A DNA stretch of 64,000 nt, from the IMG/VR virus record IMGVR_UViG_3300045988_125866; one strand, given 5' to 3'. The notes below the pieces were generated by a model that saw only the letters and a list, made by a program, of their open reading frames with translations, had not been told where the DNA came from and did not search any database. The number at the start of each line of letters is the position of its first letter. Positions within the stretch are counted from its first letter, which is position 1. Origin of the DNA: a virus. Made by a program: the position numbers and the translations under genes. Below, piece by piece: positions 9,750 through 55,830 of this stretch.

Positions 9750-10034
9750 ATGAACAACGTAAGATTTATTCCAGGATACTATGAATGGCATCTCGTTGAT
9801 GAGAAAGACAACGTGCTTCTCAACATTCCAGATGGTATCATTGACGATTGTGAGACAAAGGCTGATTTGGATTTCGTTATAGGAGACATTCCAAGACAGG
9901 CATTGAGAGCAGTCGAAGAAGGGGAAGAGCTCTATGGATGTGACGTAAGCAAATACGTCAGCGACATAGATGATGACTGCGTAGCCAAGCTTATGGCAGA
10001 TACCCTATCAGAATATCTTGGTTTAACAGCCTAA
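9750..10034 (+). CDS. hypothetical acidic early protein (94 aa)
   Basis: ORF track. AATAACCAAAACAAGAAGAATT-ATG context. Confidence 0.7.
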   Translation: MNNVRFIPGYYEWHLVDEKDNVLLNIPDGIIDDCETKADLDFVIGDIPRQALRAVEEGEELYGCDVSKYVSDIDDDCVAKLMADTLSEYLGLTA

Positions 10035-10077
10035 AAGCCGTCGAAAGACGGTACTTCAAACCAAAATAATTAGAATT

Positions 10078-11343
10078 ATGAATGAAGACAAAATCCTAAG
10101 TATGTTCTTCGAGCCGGAGCGGTGGCAGAACGCTATCAGCAAAGGCATAGACAAGGACATGAACAAAGCAACCCTGTATCAGCTCACGACACCAGAGGCT
10201 CGTCTTATTATGTATGAGAGGATTAAAAGTGGCAACTACAAGATAATGCCGCCACATACAGCCAAAATTCCAAAAGACAACGGAGATTTCCGTACTGTCT
10301 ATGTGAATGAGCCTGTAGACAGAATCCTCCTGAGCATAGCCAACGACCTCTTGTTCGAGCTGATGCCAGAGATGGTGCATCCACGCTGTACGTCGTATCA
10401 GAAAGGTATCGGCTGCGGTCGTGTGGTGCAAGATGTGTCTCGGATAATATACTCAGCAGAGGGAAAAGTCATCGGATGGAAAGGTGACTTCTCCAAATAC
10501 TTCGACAGCGTACCTATTCGGTTCATCGATTGGGCGTTTGACAAGGTAGAGGAAAAGTACGGAAAATCTGCGCTGATAGACGTCATTCGTGACTACTATC
10601 ACACAGACTTGTATTTCGATGAGGACAACAACCTCTGCGAGAAGTATCAGTCCCTCAAGCAGGGATGCTCTGTTGCGGCATGGTTGGCTGACGTCATCCT
10701 CTATCATCTTGACGACAAGCTGTCTAAGCTTAACGGATATTACGTCCGCTATTCTGACGATACGCTGTTTGTCGGTGAAGACTATGAGAAAGCCATGGAT
10801 ATCATGAAGAGCGAGCTTGAGATGATGCAGATGACTCTTAACCCGAAGAAGGTTGAGTATCTTGACGCTAATCATTGGTTCAAGTTCCTCGGATATTCCA
10901 TCAAGGGTCACAACATCTCTCTGTCGTCTACTCGCATCAAGACCTTCCAAAAAGAGATTGAGAAGAGGACGATAAAGAAACGTGACACCACGATGACGAA
11001 AGCCATCAATGCCGTAAACAGGTATCTCTACAAGGGGTACTGCGATTATTCCTGGGCTACTCAGGTTCTTCCAGTCATTAACGTGAAAGAGGACATCAAC
11101 AAGCTCAACACCTTCGTCATGGACTGCATCCGTGCGGTAAAGACGGGCAAGAGCAAAGTTGGTGGTCTTGGATACGTGAAGACTCAGGCAGTAGGTTGTA
11201 TAGACCGAGGTCGTGGCAGGAACGTGAAAGCCAACAGGAACAAGACAGAGAGCGAAATCAATGGGTATCTATCAATAGGTTGTGCTCAGAATGCCTTGCG
11301 GACGAGCAGGGCAGCGTACAACACATTGGTGAATACTCTGTAG
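10078..11343 (+). CDS. reverse transcriptase, non-DGR type (retron/group-II-like RT domain only, 421 aa)
   Basis: RT motifs read in the translation: IPKDNGDFRTVYV (1), DRILLSIANDLL (2), GWKGDFSKYFDSV (3), SLKQGCSVAAWLADVIL (4), YVRYSDDTLFV (5, catalytic YxDD), LNPKKV (6), FLGY (7). Lacks the IGxxxSQ DGR signature seen in the second RT. No endonuclease or obvious maturase extension. Exact TTAGAATTATG start. Confidence 0.85.
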   Translation: MNEDKILSMFFEPERWQNAISKGIDKDMNKATLYQLTTPEARLIMYERIKSGNYKIMPPHTAKIPKDNGDFRTVYVNEPVDRILLSIANDLLFELMPEMVHPRCTSYQKGIGCGRVVQDVSRIIYSAEGKVIGWKGDFSKYFDSVPIRFIDWAFDKVEEKYGKSALIDVIRDYYHTDLYFDEDNNLCEKYQSLKQGCSVAAWLADVILYHLDDKLSKLNGYYVRYSDDTLFVGEDYEKAMDIMKSELEMMQMTLNPKKVEYLDANHWFKFLGYSIKGHNISLSSTRIKTFQKEIEKRTIKKRDTTMTKAINAVNRYLYKGYCDYSWATQVLPVINVKEDINKLNTFVMDCIRAVKTGKSKVGGLGYVKTQAVGCIDRGRGRNVKANRNKTESEINGYLSIGCAQNALRTSRAAYNTLVNTL

Positions 11344-12695
11344 ATGTAGCACCAAGCGCAAAGGTTTTGCCGGAATGAAGAGTGATTTAACCATCCGGTC
11401 TCGAATGATGTGGACATATCTCTGATTAGAGATGGTCCAACATCCTCTCCACCAGGATGCTATCAAACTGATAAAGCTATGCGCAGTATCTTCTGACCGA
11501 CAGACTCTGTAACCGAGCACACGGACGTGGGAGAAGGACGGATTATTTATGTCACGCCTCTATGATTATCTTCAGTATGGGCCTCTTTCGCTCAAGTGAT
11601 ACTTGAGACCAAAGGGACCATACTGAAGATACACAAGGCGTGCCTAATCGCAGAAGTACAGAAATGTGCCAGTCCGTATGACTCCCACAGGTGGTGCACA
11701 CCACCACTCCCTGATGAATGGCAGAAGTTTATGCAACAGGTCCCTTAACCAGAGTTCTGGATCCTGGTAACCGTCATAACTATGAGCGGTGACCAGGATC
11801 CTGAATTCTGGCGAATCCTGTGTCAAATCAGAATCATAAAGTATTGTGCCGAGCCATCGGTCAGGGAATTACCAGAGTACGATGGTTGTCTTCGGTTGGG
11901 GAATAAGTTTAAGCGAAGTCTTAATCCATCACGCGTTTCCTGCCAATATCAAGCCGTCAACGCGTATCATCAAGACTTCTTTATCAGAACATTACATTGC
12001 CGTACAAAATTCCCATGTCGAAGACAACGTTATTGCCAAACGAGGTACACAAGGAGGCGGTACGATTTAATACCACGTGATAAAAGCAGATCACTGACAC
12101 TGGGTTATACCCAGGTAAGTGATCTCCTCTCTCACGGGGTTATATCAAAATCATACAGCTATGGCAACGAGCCTTTAAGTGTACCTACAAACTACCAAAA
12201 GTGAATTGCATCACGACTTATCAAGAGTATGAGGTTTACACACCAGCGTTCAATTAGATACGACGCCGCACAATATTGCGGCGTCGTATCCTTATGACGC
12301 TGGTATCATCATAAAACTATATTCATGCAACATAATACATGAGATAAGTCATTCGCATTGCAGCGGTGTCCGACAAGGTTTGACAATTCATCCTACATCC
12401 CTTCGTCGAGAACTCGCAGAGGTGGAGCTTACGCTCCATGAGGGCGACTTCTTGCGAAGTTATGTAGCTAATCGAATGCTTAAAGTCATGCAGCATATCA
12501 AATTGAGTCGGAATAGGTTATTGTGAGCCGAATAGTACGCAAGAAGGAAAGATTTAGACAAACAGTCCGTATCTTCCTGAGTCTTCCAGTTAATTAACTG
12601 TACGACTCAGGATTCACTCGACTGTTTACATCGAGCGCATACAGCAACACAACGTATCCTTTGAGCGTACTGCTATTAACCAATATTTTAGAATT
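11344..12695 (+). ncRNA. candidate large structured non-coding RNA / RT-associated region (1352 nt, no credible ORF)
   Basis: Begins at the RT stop and ends at the junction motif of the next gene. Helices read directly: 11570-11628 (11-bp outer stem plus nested 7-bp stem 11591-11607), 11749-11811 (20-nt arms, 18/20 paired), 12089-12124, 12242-12304 (8-bp outer plus 14-bp perfect inner stem) and 12560-12627 (two nested 8-bp stems). Track ORFs here (e.g. 11782-12204) are R/C-rich and unconvincing. Confidence 0.4.
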
Positions 12696-13154
12696 ATGAT
12701 ATACGAACTAATTATCAACGAGGTTAGGGACGGTGCAAAGTTCACCGTCAACTTTCAGAAGAGAACTTGTAGAGTGAATGGTAAGATTATCGTGAATGAT
12801 ATGCAGTATAATGGCTGGCTTGGCACATTTCCTTCTACGGAGGAAGAAATAATGAGCAAGATAGAGCAGCTATATCAGGAATACAAGCATTCTGTGCCGT
12901 CAGAGCGTTCTGAATCACATCGACACTACTACTTCAAGGCTTTGCCTGAGAAAGAGCTCTCAGACGAAGATATGATGTACGGAGAGCGACGTGAGGTGGC
13001 GAGATGCAGACTGGAGGTGTATGTCCTGTTCTGCATAATTCTTGGACGCCTCACATGGAATCCTTCATGGGGAACGTGGTTCTGGCGTTCTAAAGACGAC
13101 AATGACCTGATCATTCTCAGAGACTGGATTGAGCCAAACAAGGGTGGGGCGTAA
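12696..13154 (+). CDS. hypothetical protein (152 aa)
   Basis: ORF track. Exact TTAGAATTATG start context. Confidence 0.7.
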   Translation: MIYELIINEVRDGAKFTVNFQKRTCRVNGKIIVNDMQYNGWLGTFPSTEEEIMSKIEQLYQEYKHSVPSERSESHRHYYFKALPEKELSDEDMMYGERREVARCRLEVYVLFCIILGRLTWNPSWGTWFWRSKDDNDLIILRDWIEPNKGGA

Positions 13155-13209
13155 GCCTCATCCACAAGATTTAATTAACATTTTAATAACCATTAACAAA
13201 ATTAGAATT

Positions 13210-14277
13210 ATGAAACAGATTGCAACAATCACTGGTGAGAACTTGAACATCGTAACTAACAACGTAGAAGCTACTGGCAAGAAGACCAAGGCGCAGATGC
13301 GAATGGAAGCATTGAAGAGTGCCGGCGTTGATGTAAGTAACTACTACACTCTTGGTGCTGATAAGCTTGTCAGAATCGAGAAAGGCGAGGCTATACCTGT
13401 TGATCTTGACGATGTTGCCGTTGATGCTGTTGGCAAGAAGATTGTCGAGGGCGGATACGTGAACAACTGGAAGCTTTTCCGTCGCTGGGTAACCGCTCAG
13501 ATTTTCGGTATGCTCCGTGACATGAAGTCCGACAAGATGTCTTTCAACGAGCTTTTACAGCGCAAGGGCTACGAGTATCAGTGGCGTATGCTGGAAAACG
13601 AGTTTTACGCTCAGGCCAAGATGCAGGAGCACGGTGACACAGAGAACCTTTCGAAGCGAGAGATTTTCTTCAACGAATGCACATTCTCAGGTATGGTGGA
13701 CGACTATATTGAGAAACTTAAGGCTTACGTTAACGATAATCTTATCTTCCGCAAGGACAAGAACGGATGCAACACAAAAGAGTACAAGCACAGATGCAAG
13801 GGCGTTCCTTATGTTCGTCTGAGCAACAAGGACATCTTTGTTTCAGACTTGATGAAAAAAGTGTATGTTCCTCTGTACAAAATTGCTCGCGACGGATTTG
13901 ACACAACGAACAGACGAGAACTCTACAACCTCGTTAAGAAGTTCAACAAGATTCGCAAGCACCTCGCATGGGAAACCAAGCAGTCCGACACGTTCATCAG
14001 CGCCTACAAGGGTGCGGGTTCTTACTTCGCAATGCGTAACCTCATTATGTTCAGCGAGGCTCGCTTTACAGGCAAGTCCGAAGCGGCATCTCTCCGCAAG
14101 ATAGATACCGATGCTGTCAAGTATGGCGCAGATGAAGAGGGATGGAGAATGCTTGGTGTGCTCAAGCAGCTCATCGCAGAATCCAACATCTCTATCGACG
14201 GAAAGCTGTGCGTTTGGGCTGAGGAGTCCGCTTTCAGAAAGGCGGTAAACAAGGCTTGCAAGGAGTCGGGTAAGTAA
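13210..14277 (+). CDS. hypothetical protein (355 aa)
   Basis: In frame with track ORF 13129-14277. Start moved to the ATG after AACAAAATTAGAATT (exact motif). Confidence 0.7.
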   Translation: MKQIATITGENLNIVTNNVEATGKKTKAQMRMEALKSAGVDVSNYYTLGADKLVRIEKGEAIPVDLDDVAVDAVGKKIVEGGYVNNWKLFRRWVTAQIFGMLRDMKSDKMSFNELLQRKGYEYQWRMLENEFYAQAKMQEHGDTENLSKREIFFNECTFSGMVDDYIEKLKAYVNDNLIFRKDKNGCNTKEYKHRCKGVPYVRLSNKDIFVSDLMKKVYVPLYKIARDGFDTTNRRELYNLVKKFNKIRKHLAWETKQSDTFISAYKGAGSYFAMRNLIMFSEARFTGKSEAASLRKIDTDAVKYGADEEGWRMLGVLKQLIAESNISIDGKLCVWAEESAFRKAVNKACKESGK

Positions 14278-14520
14278 CAACACCTAAGGTTTGTCGCCTT
14301 TTTCCCGATGGCCTGGCATTACGGTTTACAAGAGCTTCTTGTATCGCCTTCCGCATCCGGTAGAATCAACCGGTACAGAAGGCGAGCATAAAGCTCTCCG
14401 GATCAAAACGCTAAAGCAAGACACCAAACCAGGAATCGAGAAAACTTTTTGCCGAAAAGGTCGGTTGTTCCTTAATCAGCAACCGACTGCAATTCATTAA
14501 CCAATTAAAATTTTAGAATT
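14278..14520 (+). other. ORF-free structured spacer (243 nt)
   Basis: Hairpins tacaag/cttgta (about 14326-14342), atccgg/ccggat (about 14354-14402) and gtcggttg/caaccgac (14460-14487). Ends in the junction motif. Confidence 0.3.
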
Positions 14521-14697
14521 ATGAGTAAGTATTTTGTAGGTATCAGCGAGACAACGAAGGGTTGGGCGGAAGTAGAGGCGGACAACGTAGAACAAGCCAA
14601 GGCTAAAGCTTATGAGGCATGGAGTAACGGAGAGGCTTTTATGGACGAGAAGAACTCTGAATGTTCCGTTGAGTGTACCTATCTGAAAAGCCTGTAA
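14521..14697 (+). CDS. small acidic protein, DpnD/PcfM-like (58 aa), not in ORF track
   Basis: Exact TTAGAATTATG. MSKYFVGISETTKGWAEVEADNVEQAKAKAYEAWSNGEAFMDEKNSECSVECTYLKSL, a paralogue of 9258-9485. Confidence 0.55.
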   Translation: MSKYFVGISETTKGWAEVEADNVEQAKAKAYEAWSNGEAFMDEKNSECSVECTYLKSL

Positions 14698-16552: not shown

Positions 16553-17563
16553 ATGAAAGAGATTCATTTAAAAACAAGAGACTGGGAGAGGCTTCTCACC
16601 TACGAACAGCAGCAGAAGTACAAGTATGCGATAAAACAGGGGTGGTTCTCAGACTATCACGGTTCTTCGTGGCGGCATGATACCTTTTATGGCGCATATA
16701 TCTGGAAACACCCTAAGTATATCAATGTTGTACGCACATTTTCCGATCTTGTTGGGCACAAGCCACTGTGGTCCGACGTAACAGACGACAATCTTCGTGA
16801 CTTGACCGAAAAAATACAGGAACTATACGCTCCTAACTCTTCAAGAACGATATGCGCTACTATAAAAGCTGTCATAAGGGAGAACGACGAGAAGGGCATA
16901 CGGAGCAGCAAGTTCGACTCTATACTTAGGGTTAAACGGGTTCCTGTTCAGGCTGTATATCTTGATGATAACGAGATACAGAGCCTTATCGACTATATCC
17001 CTCACGGATCTGTTGAGCGGTACGTTAAGCGAATGTTCATGCTTGAATGTTTGTGCGGTGCCCGTCTGAGCGATTGTCACAACATCACGCCCGAGAATAT
17101 TGATGATACAGGGAAATATATCGTATATGTTGCGCAGAAAACAAAAGCGGAGGTGAGAGTTCCTCTTCACAAGAAGCTACGGCCATTCCTTGTATGTGGG
17201 ACAGCAGACGAGCCTGTTGGCGGAGTTGTTGACGTTTACTTCAACAAGGTTCTGCGAGAAATATGTAGCAACTGCGGAATCGATACTCGTGTAAAGGTAT
17301 TCAAATGCGGTAAGTACGAGTCTGGACCTAAATACAAGTTCGTGTCTTCGCATACGGGCAGGCGCTCGTTTGCTACTAATTTATCAAAGAAGGGCGTACC
17401 GGTCGAGCAGATTGCAATCATGATGGGGCACGCCAACGGAGGCAAGCCAAATATCGAAATGACACAGCGTTACATTGTGGGAAAGACCAATATTGACACA
17501 AGAACCTTGCGCGTTTTCGGTATTTACGACGATGATTACAATAGCGTCGGCGATGAATGCTAA
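16553..17563 (+). CDS. tyrosine recombinase (phage-integrase family, 336 aa), second recombinase of the element
   Basis: Catalytic signature: GARLSD (Arg I), SSHTGRRSFATNL (His-x-x-Arg), MMGH, TQRYI (Tyr). Exact TTAGAATTATG start plus its own promoter. Confidence 0.8.
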   Translation: MKEIHLKTRDWERLLTYEQQQKYKYAIKQGWFSDYHGSSWRHDTFYGAYIWKHPKYINVVRTFSDLVGHKPLWSDVTDDNLRDLTEKIQELYAPNSSRTICATIKAVIRENDEKGIRSSKFDSILRVKRVPVQAVYLDDNEIQSLIDYIPHGSVERYVKRMFMLECLCGARLSDCHNITPENIDDTGKYIVYVAQKTKAEVRVPLHKKLRPFLVCGTADEPVGGVVDVYFNKVLREICSNCGIDTRVKVFKCGKYESGPKYKFVSSHTGRRSFATNLSKKGVPVEQIAIMMGHANGGKPNIEMTQRYIVGKTNIDTRTLRVFGIYDDDYNSVGDEC

Positions 17564-24080: not shown

Positions 24081-25244
24081 TTAACCGTTCAGATAGTCGA
24101 TGACTTTTCTGTTGGCCTCATCCACCTTTCTTGTGTCATATTTTATGTACGTCGAAGTTATCGCATTGTCCCAAAGCGAATGACCAAGAGAACGGCCTAT
24201 AACCTCCATTGGAATATCCATCTCGCTTGCGATCGTTGCCCAGGTGTGTCTGCTCCAGTAGCTTGTTATATCCTTCTCGACAGGGTGTATTGTGACATAA
24301 TAGCTGTGTCGCTCCTTTTCTCCTATTGTACGAAGGTGTCTTGTCATGTTGTTTGCGAAGGTGTTTGTAAGAGTCGTTCCAGCCTCCTCCAGGAAACTGA
24401 GAAGATAGTCCTTCTTCCTGCTCTTATGCCGGCTTATTATCTCCATTGCCTCAGGCTCAACCTTGATGTCGTACAATTTTCCTGTCTTGTTGCGCTTGTA
24501 GCTTATACGGCCATTCTTCAAAGCCGTCTTTGGAAGGAACAGCAGGTCGCTTATGTTGATACCGATGAGGTAGAAACATAGCATGAAGCAATCTCTGTAC
24601 ATGGCCTTCTTCCCGGTCAGCCTGAAATCCCTTATCGCACGCAGCTGTTCAAGGGTCAGGCAGCGCTTTTTGGTCTGCTCCTTTCTCAGCGTGATACCAC
24701 GGAACGGATACTTGTCCGTCAGTTCGTCGTCTATTGCCTTGTTGAAGGCGAACTTCATAATCTGAATGTCGGTAGATATTCCGTTCACAGCCCTTCCCTT
24801 ACTCTTCTCGTGGTCGATATAAGAAAGTACCCACTTCTTGTCAATAGTGTTAAAGTTACAGTTCTTGTCGTAAGCCTCAATCGTTCTCGCCACTCGCTCG
24901 TAATTTCTTCTCGTGTTGTACTTACCCTTCGTTTCTGCAACTTTAAGTATATACCCAACAAACGAACCTTGATCCGTCTTCTTTGCGCCCTTGACGATTT
25001 CCGTTACATGACTTTTTAGCTCATCTGCCGTCTCGTCCTTGTGGTTTAAAATGTAATCCTCCACGTCCGCATAGAGATTCGCAAGCCTTGCGGTCTTCGC
25101 CTTTGCGTTTCGGTCCGACTTCGGGAATATCAACCCGGAAAACTTTTCAGTTGTCTGCAAACCTGTGTAGACATAGAACCTCTTGTACTTAAAGGTTATA
25201 GAAAAGAACACCTTTAGATCCCTTTTGTTTACATAAATCTTCAT
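24081..25244 (-). CDS. int: tyrosine integrase, Bacteroides type (387 aa)
   Basis: C-terminal catalytic region SYWSRHTWATIASEMDIPMEVIGRSLGHSLWDNAITSTYIKY (H-x-x-R, GH, Y). N-terminal arm/SAM-like region. Adjacent to the repressor and the excisionase-like gene. Confidence 0.85.
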   Translation of the reverse strand: MKIYVNKRDLKVFFSITFKYKRFYVYTGLQTTEKFSGLIFPKSDRNAKAKTARLANLYADVEDYILNHKDETADELKSHVTEIVKGAKKTDQGSFVGYILKVAETKGKYNTRRNYERVARTIEAYDKNCNFNTIDKKWVLSYIDHEKSKGRAVNGISTDIQIMKFAFNKAIDDELTDKYPFRGITLRKEQTKKRCLTLEQLRAIRDFRLTGKKAMYRDCFMLCFYLIGINISDLLFLPKTALKNGRISYKRNKTGKLYDIKVEPEAMEIISRHKSRKKDYLLSFLEEAGTTLTNTFANNMTRHLRTIGEKERHSYYVTIHPVEKDITSYWSRHTWATIASEMDIPMEVIGRSLGHSLWDNAITSTYIKYDTRKVDEANRKVIDYLNG

Positions 25245-27681: not shown

Positions 27682-27754
27682 GGACACATAGCTCAGTGGA
27701 TAGAGCATTTCCCTCCTAAGGAAAGGGTCGCAGGTTCGATCCCTGCTGTGTCCG
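27682..27754 (+). tRNA. tRNA-Arg(CCT): tRNA-Arg, anticodon CCT (reads AGG)
   Basis: Folded by hand. Acceptor ggacaca/tgtgtcc. D arm gctc-agtggata-gagc. Anticodon arm tttcc-ctCCTaa-ggaaa. Variable loop gggtc. T arm gcagg-ttcgatc-cctgc. Discriminator g. No encoded CCA. Confidence 0.9.
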
Positions 27755-28290: not shown

Positions 28291-28364
28291 AGCGGAATAG
28301 TAGCAGTTGGTAGCTCGTCAGGCTCATATCCTGAAGGTCGGTGGTTCGAGTCCACCTTCCGCAA
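28291..28364 (+). tRNA. tRNA-Met(CAT): tRNA-Met-like, anticodon CAT, atypical (1:72 A-A mismatch, irregular D arm)
   Basis: Aligns position by position with the E. coli initiator tRNA as I recall it. Acceptor agcggaa/ttccgca (A1 x A72 mismatch). Anticodon arm tcagg-ctCATat-cctga. Variable loop aggtc. T arm ggtgg-ttcgagt-ccacc. The D stem pairs only as agc/gct. Could also be tRNA-Ile2 (lysidine). Confidence 0.65.
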
Positions 28365-52003: not shown

Positions 52004-53212
52004 TTATTTATGATTGTTTCTGATACATATCTTCCGCATATTTTGGCAATAGACAACATCCTTGTGCCGCATCATATTCCAAGCCTGCCATCTGATAGCG
52101 TAGGTATCACGACGAATCATCAGCCCTAGAAGGGAATTACATCTACAAGCAAATACCATTGCATCCTTGCTAGTAGGTTCATCTATCTCGTTCCACCACT
52201 TTATCAGTCCAAACAGATGGTCTCTTGTTCGGTTGATGGTATAGCACCTATGCGGCTTAATGATTGCGCCTGTCATTTGCACACCCTTCTTAGCCTCTTG
52301 GAGATAGACCTTATCAGGATGGAGAGTAAGCCCTAGATTTACCTTTAGCCATTTTCTTGCATCCTCCAAGGTATCTAGCAGCAATCGCTTGTCACGACTT
52401 ATGCAGACAAAATCATCAACATACCTTCCATAGCCCGAACCATCGCCCATCCTAGCCATTATCCACTTGTCGAAGATGCCCATCAGCAGATTGGCGAGTA
52501 TCTGACTAGGTAAATTGCCAATCGGTAATCCCTTGCCTTTCTCGTTCGTGAATAACGACTTATTCTTAGGCAGCTTGGCAAAGAGCGACAAATCTCCAAC
52601 CTTGATGCAATTTTTGGTAGGGTCGTGGAGGACGACTTTCTTCCATAACCATAACCAAAACTCTATATCGTTCTCGTGATACTCCTTTCGGATAATGTCC
52701 CCTACGATGTTATAGAGTCGTTGGCGGTTAATGCTCATAAAGAAGCCACTTAGGTCACACCTCAATATCCAGGCCTCCAAGGCATAATCTCCACTGATAG
52801 CCTCTATCTGACCTATAAGATGATTGATACCATAATCAACACCCTTACCCTTGCGACAAGCATAGGCGTTATCGGTCATATATTGCTCGAAGATAGACAA
52901 GAACTTGATAGCTAATATGTGATGTACTATTCTGTCCTTGAAGGTAGCACACCATACTTCCCGAAGCTTCGGGCGAGTGACACAGAAAGCCTTGCTCTGA
53001 CCTATCTCGTAGGTCATACTATTCAGCTCCAGATATAGCTGGTAGTTATTGGTGAGGAAGTTCATCTTATACTCGATGCAACCCCAAGTACTGCCCTTAT
53101 GCTTGCAGCAGTCTCGAAAGCCTTCATCTACAAGTTCTATCGGCACATATTCCCTCGCTATGTCGGTAGTCGTATTCTCTTCATAATCGGTCATTATATC
53201 AAATTTAAGCAT
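52004..53212 (-). CDS. DGR reverse transcriptase (402 aa)
   Basis: RPKLREVWCATFKDRIVHHIL, LRCDLSGFFMSI, GLPIGNLPSQILANLLM (the DGR-specific I/LGxxxSQ motif), YGRYVDDFVCI (YxDD). Directly downstream of the TR and Avd. Confidence 0.92.
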   Translation of the reverse strand: MLKFDIMTDYEENTTTDIAREYVPIELVDEGFRDCCKHKGSTWGCIEYKMNFLTNNYQLYLELNSMTYEIGQSKAFCVTRPKLREVWCATFKDRIVHHILAIKFLSIFEQYMTDNAYACRKGKGVDYGINHLIGQIEAISGDYALEAWILRCDLSGFFMSINRQRLYNIVGDIIRKEYHENDIEFWLWLWKKVVLHDPTKNCIKVGDLSLFAKLPKNKSLFTNEKGKGLPIGNLPSQILANLLMGIFDKWIMARMGDGSGYGRYVDDFVCISRDKRLLLDTLEDARKWLKVNLGLTLHPDKVYLQEAKKGVQMTGAIIKPHRCYTINRTRDHLFGLIKWWNEIDEPTSKDAMVFACRCNSLLGLMIRRDTYAIRWQAWNMMRHKDVVYCQNMRKICIRNNHK

Positions 53213-53243
53213 ACAGAAAATCTTATCGTCACTAAGTGATAAT

Positions 53244-53334
53244 CGAAAACTGGCAGGACATAGTAGCTATTGTTCTTGTTGTTGTTGTTCGCCTGAGAAT
53301 TGTAGTACCAAGCGTTCGTGGCATTGTTCTGCGT
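53244..53334 (-). repeat. DGR template repeat (TR), 91 nt (possibly 53240-53336)
   Basis: 80/91 identical to 53907-53997. On the coding (minus) strand it reads T Q N N A T N A W Y Y N S Q A N N N N K N N S Y Y V L P V F, rich in AAC/AAT, with 32 adenines. Confidence 0.92.
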
Positions 53335-53424
53335 TTACGGCTTCACTGACTTATTCCTAGCAACTCCATCCCTCAGAGGATGGCTGATTGCGGAAGCCCC
53401 TTGTCACATTTAGTGACGGCTCTC

Positions 53425-53805
53425 TTACCTTGCCGTAGCTCGGTAACTCTCACCTTTGCGATTCCTTGTCGATTTCAGCCAGCCATATCCCTCTTGCAAT
53501 ACCTTGTCAACTACATAGTTTAGGTTGGTTGCCGCCTTCACGCTCAAAAACTGCGCTTCGGCAAAGAGGGTGATTCTAGACTTGACCTCTGATAGACAAA
53601 GGATGAACTCGTTCAGATTGCGCTCACGGTCTTCAAAGGATGAGTTAATCCTTCTCACCAAGTCCAAGGCTGTGCAAGCCTTGCTTATCGCTACCTCGAA
53701 CTGTCCGTACCTCACTATCTTGCTAATAGTCTTAGAATAGTTCAATAGTAGCTTGCACAAGGTGAACGTGTCCTTGTATATCTGTAGATTCTCTGTATAT
53801 GCCAT
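53425..53805 (-). CDS. avd: DGR accessory variability determinant (Avd-like four-helix-bundle protein), 126 aa
   Basis: Size, helical character, basic C-terminus and position between the target gene and the TR. Resembles the 23S-rRNA-IVS/Avd family. Confidence 0.75.
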   Translation of the reverse strand: MAYTENLQIYKDTFTLCKLLLNYSKTISKIVRYGQFEVAISKACTALDLVRRINSSFEDRERNLNEFILCLSEVKSRITLFAEAQFLSVKAATNLNYVVDKVLQEGYGWLKSTRNRKGESYRATAR

Positions 53806-53898
53806 GGTTATTTATTCTAAAAATTGCATACTTGCTTGCTTATCTTGCTTGCCACCTCCCTTCCGTGGAAGAGATAAAGAGGCAAAGAGATAAAGAGG

Positions 53899-55830
53899 TC
53901 AGCAAGCGAAAACTGGCAGGACATAGCCGCTACTGCCCTTGCTGCTGTAGTTCGCCTGAGAATAGTAGAACCAAGCGTTCCTGGCATTGTTCTGCGTACT
54001 AGTCCATCTATTCTGACCATTCACGAACTTATAGTAAGCGTCAGCCACGCTATCCCCGAAGAGTGTTCTCAACACTTCTCGGATGGTGCCAGCATTACTG
54101 ATATGTACGTACTCCTGACCTACTGACATAAGGAAGCCATTCAGTTTCTCACCGCCAATCTCTAAGCTCTGACCATAGGCGAAGGAAAATGCAGGTACAC
54201 TAAGACTTCGCTCCTCAGCCTCTTGTCGAACCAAGAAGGACGATTGCTCTCCGTTCCAATAGTTAGGGTCAGACGATGTATTGCCATTGAGGGCGATTGA
54301 GGTAAATTGTAGATTCTGCGTACACCACTGATACTTTTGCAGCTTCGTCATATCCTTTAAGTCGGTGCAGCGGATGATGAAGGTACCTCTGTTAAGGCGA
54401 AGGTTCTGGTCTGACACCTTGATGGCGATAGCTTCCTCGGCAGTCTTGCCAGCAGCCACCCAGTCCTCGATGTAGTACTCAGTTGCATCAGAATCAAGCA
54501 CGTAGATACCTGTCTTGAACTGGTACATATTGACTTGAATAAGTCGCTGAGCTACCCTTGATGTGTAGGTACGAGAGTTCTTGTTAAAGCGAACATAGTA
54601 GCCATCCTCGTCATCAACCCTCACGGTGTACTCCTTGAGATACGGAACATAGATGGTCGCCTGTCCCTTATCATCGGTGGTGTAGGTTGTTGCCTTATTG
54701 TCGATGGTTACAATCACGTCCTTTCCTTCCCAAGGCGTGCCATTGCCATCGGTGTATTTGGTGACAGTCACGATAACTTTCTCGCTTGCCTCCTCATCAT
54801 AAGGCTCGTAGCTAAACGTGATGGTCTTGCTCACGCCCACAGAGGTAAAGCCTATTGGAGACAAGGGCTGAGCGTTGGCATACTCGGGGACGGCTACTTG
54901 GTAGTACACACCTCGGCTGACCTTGAATGTGGTCTTGCCCTCTGAGTCGGTGGTGTAGGTCTGAGGAGTCTTGCCGTTATTGAGAAATACGTTAATCTTG
55001 ATACCAGCCACCTTGATAGAGTCAACAGAAGAGGCAATTGTGACAGTCACTTCCTCATCAGTGTTGATAACATCTACCGATTTGGTTTCTCCGTTGCGGT
55101 TTGTCACAGAGATAGTCGAACCCGACATCTCTATATCGCAGGTTTCCGCACCTGTCGTGGCGGCCTCTGCGTCTTTGATGGCAGTAGTGAAATCTTTCTC
55201 ACGCTTTGTTTCTGCGTCCACACGAGATTGCTCTGCTTCTACTCTTGCATCTTCTGCGGCAGCTCTGTCTGTCTCTGCCTGCTTGCGAGTTATTTCTGCA
55301 TCAACACGTTCTTTCTCAGCAGATACTCTCTGCGTCTCGGCTTCCTTTCTCGCTTCCTCATTCGCATTGAGGGTATCGTTTATCTCCTTGTTGTTTTTCA
55401 GAACCTCATTCGCCTTATCAATTAGGTCACTCAACTCAACAGAAGGAGGCAGAATAACCATAGCCGTATCCATCTCTACGCTGTTGTCGCCCTCATCAGT
55501 AGTCCCAAACTCAGTATCAGCATCGGCATTGTTGGCCACGATGGCAAACTGAGGGTATTCGTTGCTTCGCCAGTCATTGCCGAATATCTTACCCTTTACC
55601 TCGATAGCATACGTGCCGAGGCTCATCTTATCACCCTCTACTCTCGCAAGGAGAACATTATCCTCCTTTACATCAATCGTAAATGCAAGAGGTATGCGTT
55701 TGAATTGATTACACACCTGTACCACCACGTCCGTACAGGCTGGCAAGGGGAAAGCCTTCGCTTGCCCCTCCACCATCTTCATCACTGGAATCCTCAGCGT
55801 GAAGTCATTACCTTTAACGATTTTCTTCAT
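53899..55830 (-). CDS. DGR target: tail-fibre/receptor-binding-like protein with C-terminal variable C-type-lectin/DUF1566-like domain (643 aa)
   Basis: N-terminal Ig-like region. Charged coiled coil (EARKEAETQRVSAEKERVDAEITRKQAETDRAAAEDARVEAEQSRVDAETKRE). Beta-rich repeats. The C-terminus ...NRWTSTQNNARNAWFYYSQANYSSKGSSGYVLPVFAC overlaps the VR. Confidence 0.85.
   Translation of the reverse strand: MKKIVKGNDFTLRIPVMKMVEGQAKAFPLPACTDVVVQVCNQFKRIPLAFTIDVKEDNVLLARVEGDKMSLGTYAIEVKGKIFGNDWRSNEYPQFAIVANNADADTEFGTTDEGDNSVEMDTAMVILPPSVELSDLIDKANEVLKNNKEINDTLNANEEARKEAETQRVSAEKERVDAEITRKQAETDRAAAEDARVEAEQSRVDAETKREKDFTTAIKDAEAATTGAETCDIEMSGSTISVTNRNGETKSVDVINTDEEVTVTIASSVDSIKVAGIKINVFLNNGKTPQTYTTDSEGKTTFKVSRGVYYQVAVPEYANAQPLSPIGFTSVGVSKTITFSYEPYDEEASEKVIVTVTKYTDGNGTPWEGKDVIVTIDNKATTYTTDDKGQATIYVPYLKEYTVRVDDEDGYYVRFNKNSRTYTSRVAQRLIQVNMYQFKTGIYVLDSDATEYYIEDWVAAGKTAEEAIAIKVSDQNLRLNRGTFIIRCTDLKDMTKLQKYQWCTQNLQFTSIALNGNTSSDPNYWNGEQSSFLVRQEAEERSLSVPAFSFAYGQSLEIGGEKLNGFLMSVGQEYVHISNAGTIREVLRTLFGDSVADAYYKFVNGQNRWTSTQNNARNAWFYYSQANYSSKGSSGYVLPVFAC
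53907..53997 (-). repeat. DGR variable repeat (VR), last 31 codons of the target gene
   Basis: 11 mismatches to the TR. Nine fall at TR adenines (coding strand): Y>F, N>Y, N>Y, N>S, N>S, N>G (two As), N>S, and one of two changes in Y>G. Ends 5 nt before the stop codon (53899-53901). Confidence 0.92.

Follow-up and report, generated by a model that had tools for sequence, protein, structure and literature searches.

Between positions 10078 and 14441 of the window, by which we mean the whole 64,000-nucleotide (nt) stretch of viral DNA analysed here (IMG/VR record IMGVR_UViG_3300045988_125866), lies what is very probably a complete UG27 system of a temperate Segatella (Prevotella) copri phage. 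It comprises a reverse transcriptase (RT) gene, an array of eight non-coding RNA (ncRNA) units, a small and a large accessory open reading frame (sORF and bORF, respectively) and a ninth ncRNA unit, with a complementary DNA (cDNA) output that is expected by homology to characterised systems.

UG27 is a family of class 2 UG/Abi RTs frequently encountered in predicted gut phages of Bacteroidetes and Firmicutes; its RT genes are associated with two clusters of proteins without assigned function and precede a long intergenic stretch that putatively encodes a structured ncRNA. The family shows no enrichment in defence islands, and a non-defence role has been predicted for it (Mestre et al. 2022, NAR, PMC9226505). 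The text of a preprint of 24 September 2026, which covers more than 14,000 UG27 loci, describes this intergenic region as a variable array of ~150-nt ncRNA units (about 135–167 nt), each consisting of a basal hairpin, a pseudoknot and a main hairpin, with UUYA and AUCNNNNNNNUANAG placed in an internal loop around the central stem (bioRxiv 10.64898/2026.09.22.753630). According to the same text, five cloned UG27 systems yield RT-dependent single-stranded DNAs (ssDNAs) of 50–100 nt that start at AUC and end after UUYA, and both accessory ORFs were required in the two UG27 systems tested.

UG27 RTs, their phage habitat, their accessory genes, the structured intergenic region, the array and the short cDNAs are already known. 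What the present locus adds is an independent reconstruction of the UG27 architecture (units, motifs, helices and pseudoknot), exact coordinates for the nine cDNA templates predicted in this Segatella copri phage, and two leads on the role of the hairpin cDNAs, namely variation that is concentrated in the cassette of each unit, running from UUYA to AUC, and a cultured phage, BS-TP1, that carries the system.

Classification of the reverse transcriptase

The RT gene (10078–11343, + strand) encodes a protein of 421 amino acids (aa) with an intact YSDD motif at residue 225 and a Pfam RVT_1 match over residues 64–275, and a sequence scan found no IGxxxSQ signature in it, in agreement with an earlier reading of the same DNA from its letters alone (hereafter the sequence-only reading). 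That reading had also called the RT an orphan outside any described class, which did not hold: the protein matches the PADLOC profile RT_UG27, whose family was described in 2022 (PMC9226505), with E = 2.7e-227 (752.6 bits), residues 3–421 aligning to positions 2–420 of the 420 in the profile. The runner-up PADLOC profiles were UG26 (3.7e-33), Drt9/UG28 (2.8e-28) and UG17 (1.5e-26), followed by the weaker Drt2 (1.3e-12) and the best retron profile (8e-12). Because the UG27 profile match spans the full length, the RT is neither an orphan nor unclassifiable, and by this measure it is a full-length member of UG27, a described class 2 UG/Abi family. The kinship in logic with DRT2 and DRT9 that the sequence-only reading had proposed holds up in that both of these are also class 2 UG/Abi RTs. 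The RT is 69% identical to that of a locus in Alistipes putredinis DSM 17216 (L111), and a megablast search of the locus against GenBank phages returned 0 matches.

An array of ncRNA units downstream of the RT

Between the RT stop codon and the next gene, the 1352 nt at 11344–12695 hold no credible ORF, only short ones, as had been stated from the sequence alone; the longest (140 aa, 11782–12204) is rich in arginine and cysteine, junk-like, and crosses units 3–5. Eight ncRNA units tile positions 11351–12671 of this region, each of 149–176 nt including its mini-hairpin and separated from the next by a linker of 3–15 nt. On the + strand, the motif AUC-N7-UANAG occurs exactly at 11462, 11647, 11827, 12144, 12471 and 12630, as well as at 14402, and with one mismatch at 11983 (UACAU) and 12308 (UAUAU), which gives seven exact and two one-mismatch copies over nine units. 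The eight copies in the array are spaced 185, 180, 156, 161, 164, 163 and 159 nt apart, and every AUC is preceded, 73–101 nt to its 5' side, by UUYA, which is UUCA in unit 7 and UUUA in the other eight. The idea of an RT with a dedicated RNA, as the sequence-only reading had put it, survives in part, in that a co-oriented non-coding template region does follow the RT; the region is, however, not one 1.35-kb molecule but eight units, with a ninth further downstream. The periodicity of 156–185 nt, the two accessory genes and the ninth unit past 14277 had all been overlooked in that reading.

Fold and covariation of the units

The structure of the units was derived from their sequence together with the verbal description in the text of the preprint (bioRxiv 10.64898/2026.09.22.753630), the layout being read by eye and then checked by script. 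From 5' to 3', a unit consists of a mini-hairpin of 3–6 base pairs (bp), an outer stem of 6–8 bp, an internal loop (commonly AAGR opposite WUGA), an inner stem of 4–5 bp, a short joiner, UUYA, the central hairpin (53–80 nt beyond its basal stem), AUC-N7-UANAG, a tail of 11–12 nt and the two closing strands. The outer and inner stems make up a basal stem in two parts, and UUYA and AUC-N7-UANAG sit on the 5' and 3' sides, respectively, of an asymmetric internal loop under a long central hairpin of variable sequence. All nine central hairpins beat dinucleotide shuffles when folded as RNA (z = −3.5 to −10.1), and each of the nine predicted cDNAs also forms a hairpin when folded as DNA (z = −4.0 to −9.8). 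The five long hairpins listed in the sequence-only reading are real, being the central hairpins of units 2, 3, 5, 6 and 8, each of which surpasses its shuffles.

Additionally, the loop of the mini-hairpin pairs with nucleotides 4–8 past UANAG, forming a 5-bp pseudoknot in 8/8 units of the array and, with 4/5 pairs, in unit 9. The pairing is kept while its sequence varies, with GCGCA/UGCGC in unit 1, GCACA/UGUGC in units 2 and 3, GUACG/CGUAC in unit 4, UUGCCA/UGGCAA (6 bp) in unit 5, UUGCA/UGCAA in unit 6 and UUGUG/CACAA in unit 8.

The units share almost no sequence, and plain MAFFT alignments of the nine (A1 and A2) scrambled the helices and were rejected; the text of the preprint also states that MAFFT fails on UG27 units (bioRxiv 10.64898/2026.09.22.753630). 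A seed alignment of the nine units (A3) was built by hand, padded with N to equal length and trimmed of the apical parts of the central hairpins, and served only to seed a covariance model, R1; in it, 26/26 pairs differ on both sides. Searched over 64 kb on both strands, R1 matched the nine units only, even at E ≤ 10. On other loci R1 was weak (19 matches at E ≤ 0.01), and at E ≤ 0.5 in the window and 28 related loci 51/51 matches lay on the RT strand within arrays. A second model, R2, built from 51 real R1 matches, gave 168 matches at E ≤ 0.01 in the window and the 28 loci, all on the RT strand and all within arrays, among them six units of the A. putredinis locus. With its default filters R2 misses unit 2; with the filters off, the eight units of the array score 43–76 bits.

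In a model-made alignment of 149 distinct units (A6), the modelled helices are paired in 92.3% of cells, compared to 34–41% with slid partners, and their covariation score is 1.05, compared to 0.07–0.14. Conservation of the motifs in these units is 100/99/100% for AUC, 100/99% for UA, 100% for A and 93% for G of UANAG, and 92/93% for the UU of UUYA. Leaving the modelled helices aside, the five pseudoknot pairs rank highest in mutual information, and because they are not in the model they constitute an independent test. They are paired in 92.7% of cases, against 73.3% in shuffles and 9–62% with slid partners; 164 cells are altered on both sides where 49.5 are expected; and the longest Watson-Crick match between a unit's own loop and tail averages 4.6 nt, against 3.1 nt for mismatched units. 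All helices and the pseudoknot covary across units. For the N7 spacer, neither mutual information over the 149 units nor inspection by eye revealed a base-pairing partner. A search of Rfam had been proposed from the sequence alone, and this one found no ncRNA family for the units, whether in the whole window at the gathering threshold or at positions 9900–14600 at E ≤ 1, the sole match being a chance one of the unit 3 hairpin to a miRNA precursor.

The internal loop of the basal stem is conserved across the 149 units in A6 columns 48–51 (A 65%, A 75%, G 82%, G 56%) and, on the opposite side, in columns 287–289 (U 63%, G 77%, A 75%), as exemplified by unit 6 at 12223–12226 and 12339–12342. It looks like a tandem G-A motif and might serve as a protein-binding site.

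Coordinates of the nine units

All units lie on the + strand, and their central hairpins are given below with z values for RNA and then for DNA. Unit 1 (11351–11504) has UUUA at 11386 and an exact motif at 11462–11476, which define a predicted cDNA template of 79 nt at 11386–11464; it scores 71.8 bits with R2 (z = −3.5 and −4.0), and its pseudoknot joins GCGCA at 11356–11360 to TGCGC at 11480–11484. In unit 2 (11513–11688), UUUA at 11546 and the exact motif at 11647–11661 bound a predicted template of 104 nt (11546–11649; 47.1 bits with the filters off; z = −7.9 and −9.8), and in unit 3 (11693–11867), with UUUA at 11728 and an exact motif at 11827–11841, the predicted template measures 102 nt (11728–11829; 68.1 bits; z = −7.7 and −6.4). 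The motif of unit 4 (11872–12025), at 11983–11997, carries one mismatch; with UUUA at 11908, the predicted template comes to 78 nt (11908–11985; 43.2 bits; z = −5.2 and −5.4).

Unit 5 (12029–12186) again has an exact motif (12144–12158), with UUUA at 12066 and a predicted template of 81 nt at 12066–12146 (74.8 bits; z = −5.7 and −7.1). The shortest predicted template, of 76 nt at 12235–12310, belongs to unit 6 (12202–12350), which has UUUA at 12235 and a motif with one mismatch at 12308–12322 (75.7 bits; z = −10.1 and −9.5). In unit 7 (12354–12512), UUCA at 12387 and an exact motif at 12471–12485 give a predicted template of 87 nt (12387–12473; 44.3 bits; z = −5.8 and −5.4), and unit 8 (12516–12671) combines UUUA at 12553 with an exact motif at 12630–12644 for a predicted 80 nt (12553–12632; 71.0 bits; z = −7.3 and −6.4). 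Unit 9 (14287–14441) is solitary and lies 3' of bORF, in a 243-nt gap past the stop at 14277, a place where the majority of related loci, including that of A. putredinis, also have a unit; its UUUA is at 14325, its exact motif at 14402–14416 and its predicted 80-nt template at 14325–14404 (59.1 bits; z = −6.9 and −5.9).

Two accessory genes

Past the array, sORF (12696–13154, + strand) encodes 152 aa without a known domain and is 52% identical (E = 2e-58, BLASTP) to the ORF that occupies this position in the A. putredinis locus. It is followed by bORF (13210–14277, + strand; 355 aa from its ATG), which is 37% identical (E = 2e-61, BLASTP) to its A. putredinis counterpart. This comparison with A. 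putredinis ORFs in the same positions was used as a substitute for profiles of the two described protein clusters, 337 and 346. By tblastn, homologues of both sORF and bORF adjoin the RT in 105/115 loci, several of the exceptions being truncated by a contig end, and the usual order across related loci is RT, array, sORF, bORF and one more unit. Judged by similarity and position, sORF and bORF belong to the UG27 system. Pfam and PHROG gave no match for either protein, in line with published descriptions of UG27, a sequence search of the PDB with both returned nothing credible, and none of the 120 listed among the 815 bORF homologues has a Pfam domain. Modelling bORF with AlphaFold2 from 28 aligned sequences gave a mean pLDDT of 52.3, too poor for a fold search. 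One bORF homologue (P0002, 96% identical) is called 'glutaredoxin' by JGI; neither P0002 nor bORF has a Pfam domain, and on that footing the name is unsupported.

An 11-mer that ends in the start codon, TTAGAATTATG, occurs in 13 copies at + strand gene starts of the window (3566, 4011, 4608, 5321, 5836, 6043, 10070, 12688, 13202, 14513, 16545, 17939 and 34645), and the copy at 12688 is the conserved junction motif that the sequence-only reading had correctly seen at the gene following the non-coding region. It precedes the RT, sORF, bORF and the next gene, and possibly acts as a translation-initiation or junction signal common to the gene block. The frame of bORF is open from a TTG at 13129; its start is probably the ATG at 13210, because a copy of TTAGAATTATG stands at 13202.

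Cassette variation among close relatives

In a positional alignment of the 12 closest arrays, the scaffold is 97.2% identical, whereas the cassettes are 89.0% and the N7 spacers 89.9% identical; the RT genes of the same loci are 95–97% identical at the nucleotide level. Among loci whose RT protein is 98–100% identical, single units are 71–100% identical to those of the window. The two halves of the unit 6 scaffold (37 and 33 nt) recur in 74 loci with 0–3 errors each, at a mean identity of 98% compared to an RT third-codon identity of 74–92%, a comparison that is biased since unit 6 orthologues were picked by scaffold similarity, and from which bias the 12-array positional alignment is free. 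More than 30 distinct cassettes occur in unit 6, many of them with compensatory changes that keep the hairpin, and N7 varies alongside. In close relatives, then, the cDNA-templating cassette and N7 are replaced or rewritten while the scaffold stays fixed. Change focused on the cassette was also seen in units 1–3 (loci L002–L085).

Whole units also come and go: in most loci with an RT ~95% identical, nothing corresponds to units 7 and 8. One relative (L001, IMGVR_UViG_3300045988_092386) has an RT protein 100% identical and units 4–5 that are 97–100% identical to those of the window; its sORF and bORF are 67% and 60% identical, and its units 6–8 differ and lack a counterpart. This locus is therefore a mosaic with a recombination breakpoint inside the array. 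Other combinations of sORF and bORF were observed in three further loci (L009, L012 and L064). Searched against the rest of the 64-kb window, the cassettes gave matches of 14–20 nt at chance level only (E ≥ 0.2) and no second copy. The main text of the preprint mentions the gain and loss of units, and the contrast between cassette and scaffold is not among the patterns mentioned there (bioRxiv 10.64898/2026.09.22.753630).

Predicted products and their role

By homology to the five tested UG27 systems, the RT, sORF and bORF would together start cDNA at AUC and stop after UUYA, and the predicted output is nine different minus-sense ssDNA hairpins of 79, 104, 102, 78, 81, 76, 87, 80 and 80 nt. 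The array would be co-transcribed with the RT, because the two share a strand and junction motifs and no terminator-like site was predicted on the + strand within the array. A scan for sigma-70 promoters, with a consensus unsuited to Bacteroidota, stayed at chance level.

Several points weigh against a complete UG27 system with this output. The cDNA output would be carried over from systems whose RTs are ~69% identical or less. We take L111 (DSM 17216) to be the tested A. putredinis system on the basis of the hCom2 strain list. The preprint text reports an A. putredinis system as tested and leaves the strain unnamed (bioRxiv 10.64898/2026.09.22.753630). Also, A3 was fitted by hand and A6 by the model, which inflates the percentages of paired positions and makes those of A3 circular. 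Free of this alignment-fitting bias are the pseudoknot test, the strand specificity and the location specificity of the matches.

As to what the hairpins do, our preferred guess is that they would act as sequence-specific or shape-specific ligands or decoys in conflict between phage and host or between phages. That the array forms a library of ssDNA hairpins under diversifying selection, which act as specificity determinants or decoys in such conflicts and might be rewritten via their own cDNA, is a tentative idea to which we would give perhaps one chance in several.

The same anatomy could also serve a prophage-borne defence or superinfection exclusion like that of DRT2 and DRT9, instead of helping the phage through its own infection, which we hold to be unlikely though well worth keeping in view. 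The nearest characterised relatives of the RT are antiviral (Drt9, 2.8e-28; Drt2, 1.3e-12), and the element is temperate, with two integrases and a close relative in the chromosome of S. copri HDD04 (L083). On the other side, UG27 lacks enrichment in defence islands and a non-defence role is predicted by Mestre et al. (PMC9226505), the locus sits among small same-strand phage genes that share TTAGAATTATG, and the products of tested UG27 systems are, according to the preprint text, short hairpins unlike the long or concatemeric cDNAs of DRT2 and DRT9 (bioRxiv 10.64898/2026.09.22.753630); none of the three is decisive.

Other readings of the non-coding region and the RT

The sequence-only reading had combined the hairpin-dense region into one large structured ncRNA of ~1.35 kb, possibly closed by a long-range helix between 11356–11364 and 12657–12666 (two 9–10-nt stretches that are complementary by eye); this would make a new class of RT plus giant RNA without accessory proteins. 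This is very improbable, as the region is made of eight in-register units with the same motifs and helices, and as both arms of the proposed helix are taken by local covarying pairings: GCGCA at 11356–11360 pairs with TGCGC at 11480–11484 in the unit 1 pseudoknot, and 12657–12666 is in the basal stem of unit 8, where it pairs with 12534–12550. Moreover, unit 8, which contains the 3' arm, is missing from most loci with an RT ~95% identical, units being gained, lost and swapped, and two conserved accessory genes follow the array.

Even slimmer is the chance that 11344–12695 is decayed coding DNA with incidental hairpins. A 140-aa ORF is indeed open at 11782–12204, but it crosses three units and is junk-like in composition, and every helix covaries over the 149 units, which is unexpected from coding decay; in addition, conservation of the scaffold in the 12 closest loci (97.2% identity) equals or exceeds that of the RT gene (95–97% at the nucleotide level), and the equivalent gap in phage BS-TP1 has no annotated gene and at least four units.

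The same near-negligible probability attaches to a retron, a group II intron remnant or a second diversity-generating retroelement (DGR), classes against which the sequence-only reading had already decided and which profile scores, Rfam and the IGxxxSQ scan all oppose: there is generic RT similarity (NCBIfam TIGR04416 for group II RTs/maturases, 103.6 bits; retron St85 RT, E = 5e-11), and among solved structures those of group II intron and retron-type RTs come closest (E = 1e-8 to 1e-11), but the scores fall far under the cut-offs (103.6 bits against 300 for TIGR04416, 42.4 against 235 for the NCBIfam retron models) and under the UG27 match, no intron domain or retron msr was found by Rfam in the searches described above, only 43 nt separate the RT from the upstream ORF, which stops at 10034 (as had been noted from the sequence alone), and, against a DGR, IGxxxSQ is absent, no cassette has a second copy that could form a template repeat (TR) and variable repeat (VR) pair, and a real DGR with its own RT lies elsewhere in the window. 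The NCBIfam Drt2 model also stays below its cut-off, with 43.5 bits against 390.

Comparison with known systems

With the described UG27 systems the locus shares the RT family, YSDD, the gene set and order, the unit length (149–176 nt), the unit motifs, the basal hairpin and the pseudoknot, as well as the phage context, the Bacteroidota host and accessory proteins without known domains. The A. putredinis locus differs in having 7+1 units, compared to 8+1 here, and in its host, which here is Segatella copri; with proteins that are 69%, 52% and 37% identical to the RT, sORF and bORF of the window, there is no categorical difference.

Like the locus, DRT9 (UG28) and DRT2 (UG2) combine a stand-alone class 2 RT with an adjacent, dedicated structured ncRNA template; their ncRNA, however, is a single unit upstream of the RT, whereas the window has a downstream array. 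In the preprint text, the cDNAs of other class 2 RTs are long or concatemeric, whereas UG27 makes short hairpins and needs two accessory proteins (bioRxiv 10.64898/2026.09.22.753630). DRT9 and DRT2 are host defence genes, whereas UG27 is phage-borne and has no defence-island signal (PMC9226505).

Retrons resemble the system in that an RT uses a defined part of a structured ncRNA encoded next to it as the template for a short ssDNA that is abundant and contains a stem-loop, which for UG27 would hold here by homology. A retron has one msr-msd upstream of its RT, is primed from a branching G and forms an RNA–DNA hybrid; the window differs in its nine units, its other flanking motifs and its other RT clade. 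By analogy only, CRISPR arrays are likewise tandem, with a conserved scaffold, a variable insert and units that are gained, lost or replaced; UG27 units differ in being structured RNAs that template cDNA, with scaffolds that are dissimilar in sequence within one array and hence no repeat-spacer layout in the DNA, and no match between a cassette and a target was found within the window.

Phage context and relatives

The window as a whole belongs to a temperate tailed phage, with two integrases, tape-measure-like and tail-fibre-like proteins, virion proteins and two transfer RNAs (tRNAs), and the UG27 locus lies in a block of small same-strand phage genes with TTAGAATTATG. The tyrosine-integrase genes are at 16553–17563 (+ strand) and 24081–25244 (− strand), and the tRNA genes at 27682–27754 and 28292–28363; integrases and tRNAs fit a temperate phage, possibly a composite or nested element. 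Close relatives are found in IMG/VR contigs and in Segatella/Prevotella copri genomes, and one of them (L083) is integrated in the complete chromosome of S. copri HDD04.

On the − strand (52004–55830), the window also carries a separate DGR, as the sequence-only reading had recognised. Its RT (52004–53212, 402 aa) has YVDD and IGNLPSQ, its TR is at 53241–53334, and its VR at 53904–53997 forms the 3' end of the gene for a 643-aa virion protein; TR and VR differ by 12 mismatches, 10 of which are at TR adenines. This DGR is unrelated to the UG27 locus.

Among cultured phages, Bacteroides phage BS-TP1 (PQ571274.1, 79351–84000; L116) encodes an RT that is 67% identical to that of the window and is annotated as 'tail protein'. 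A 1350-nt unannotated gap 3' of this gene holds at least four units, and the next genes are hypothetical proteins. On the similarity of its RT and units, BS-TP1 carries the same UG27 system, with its RT mis-annotated.

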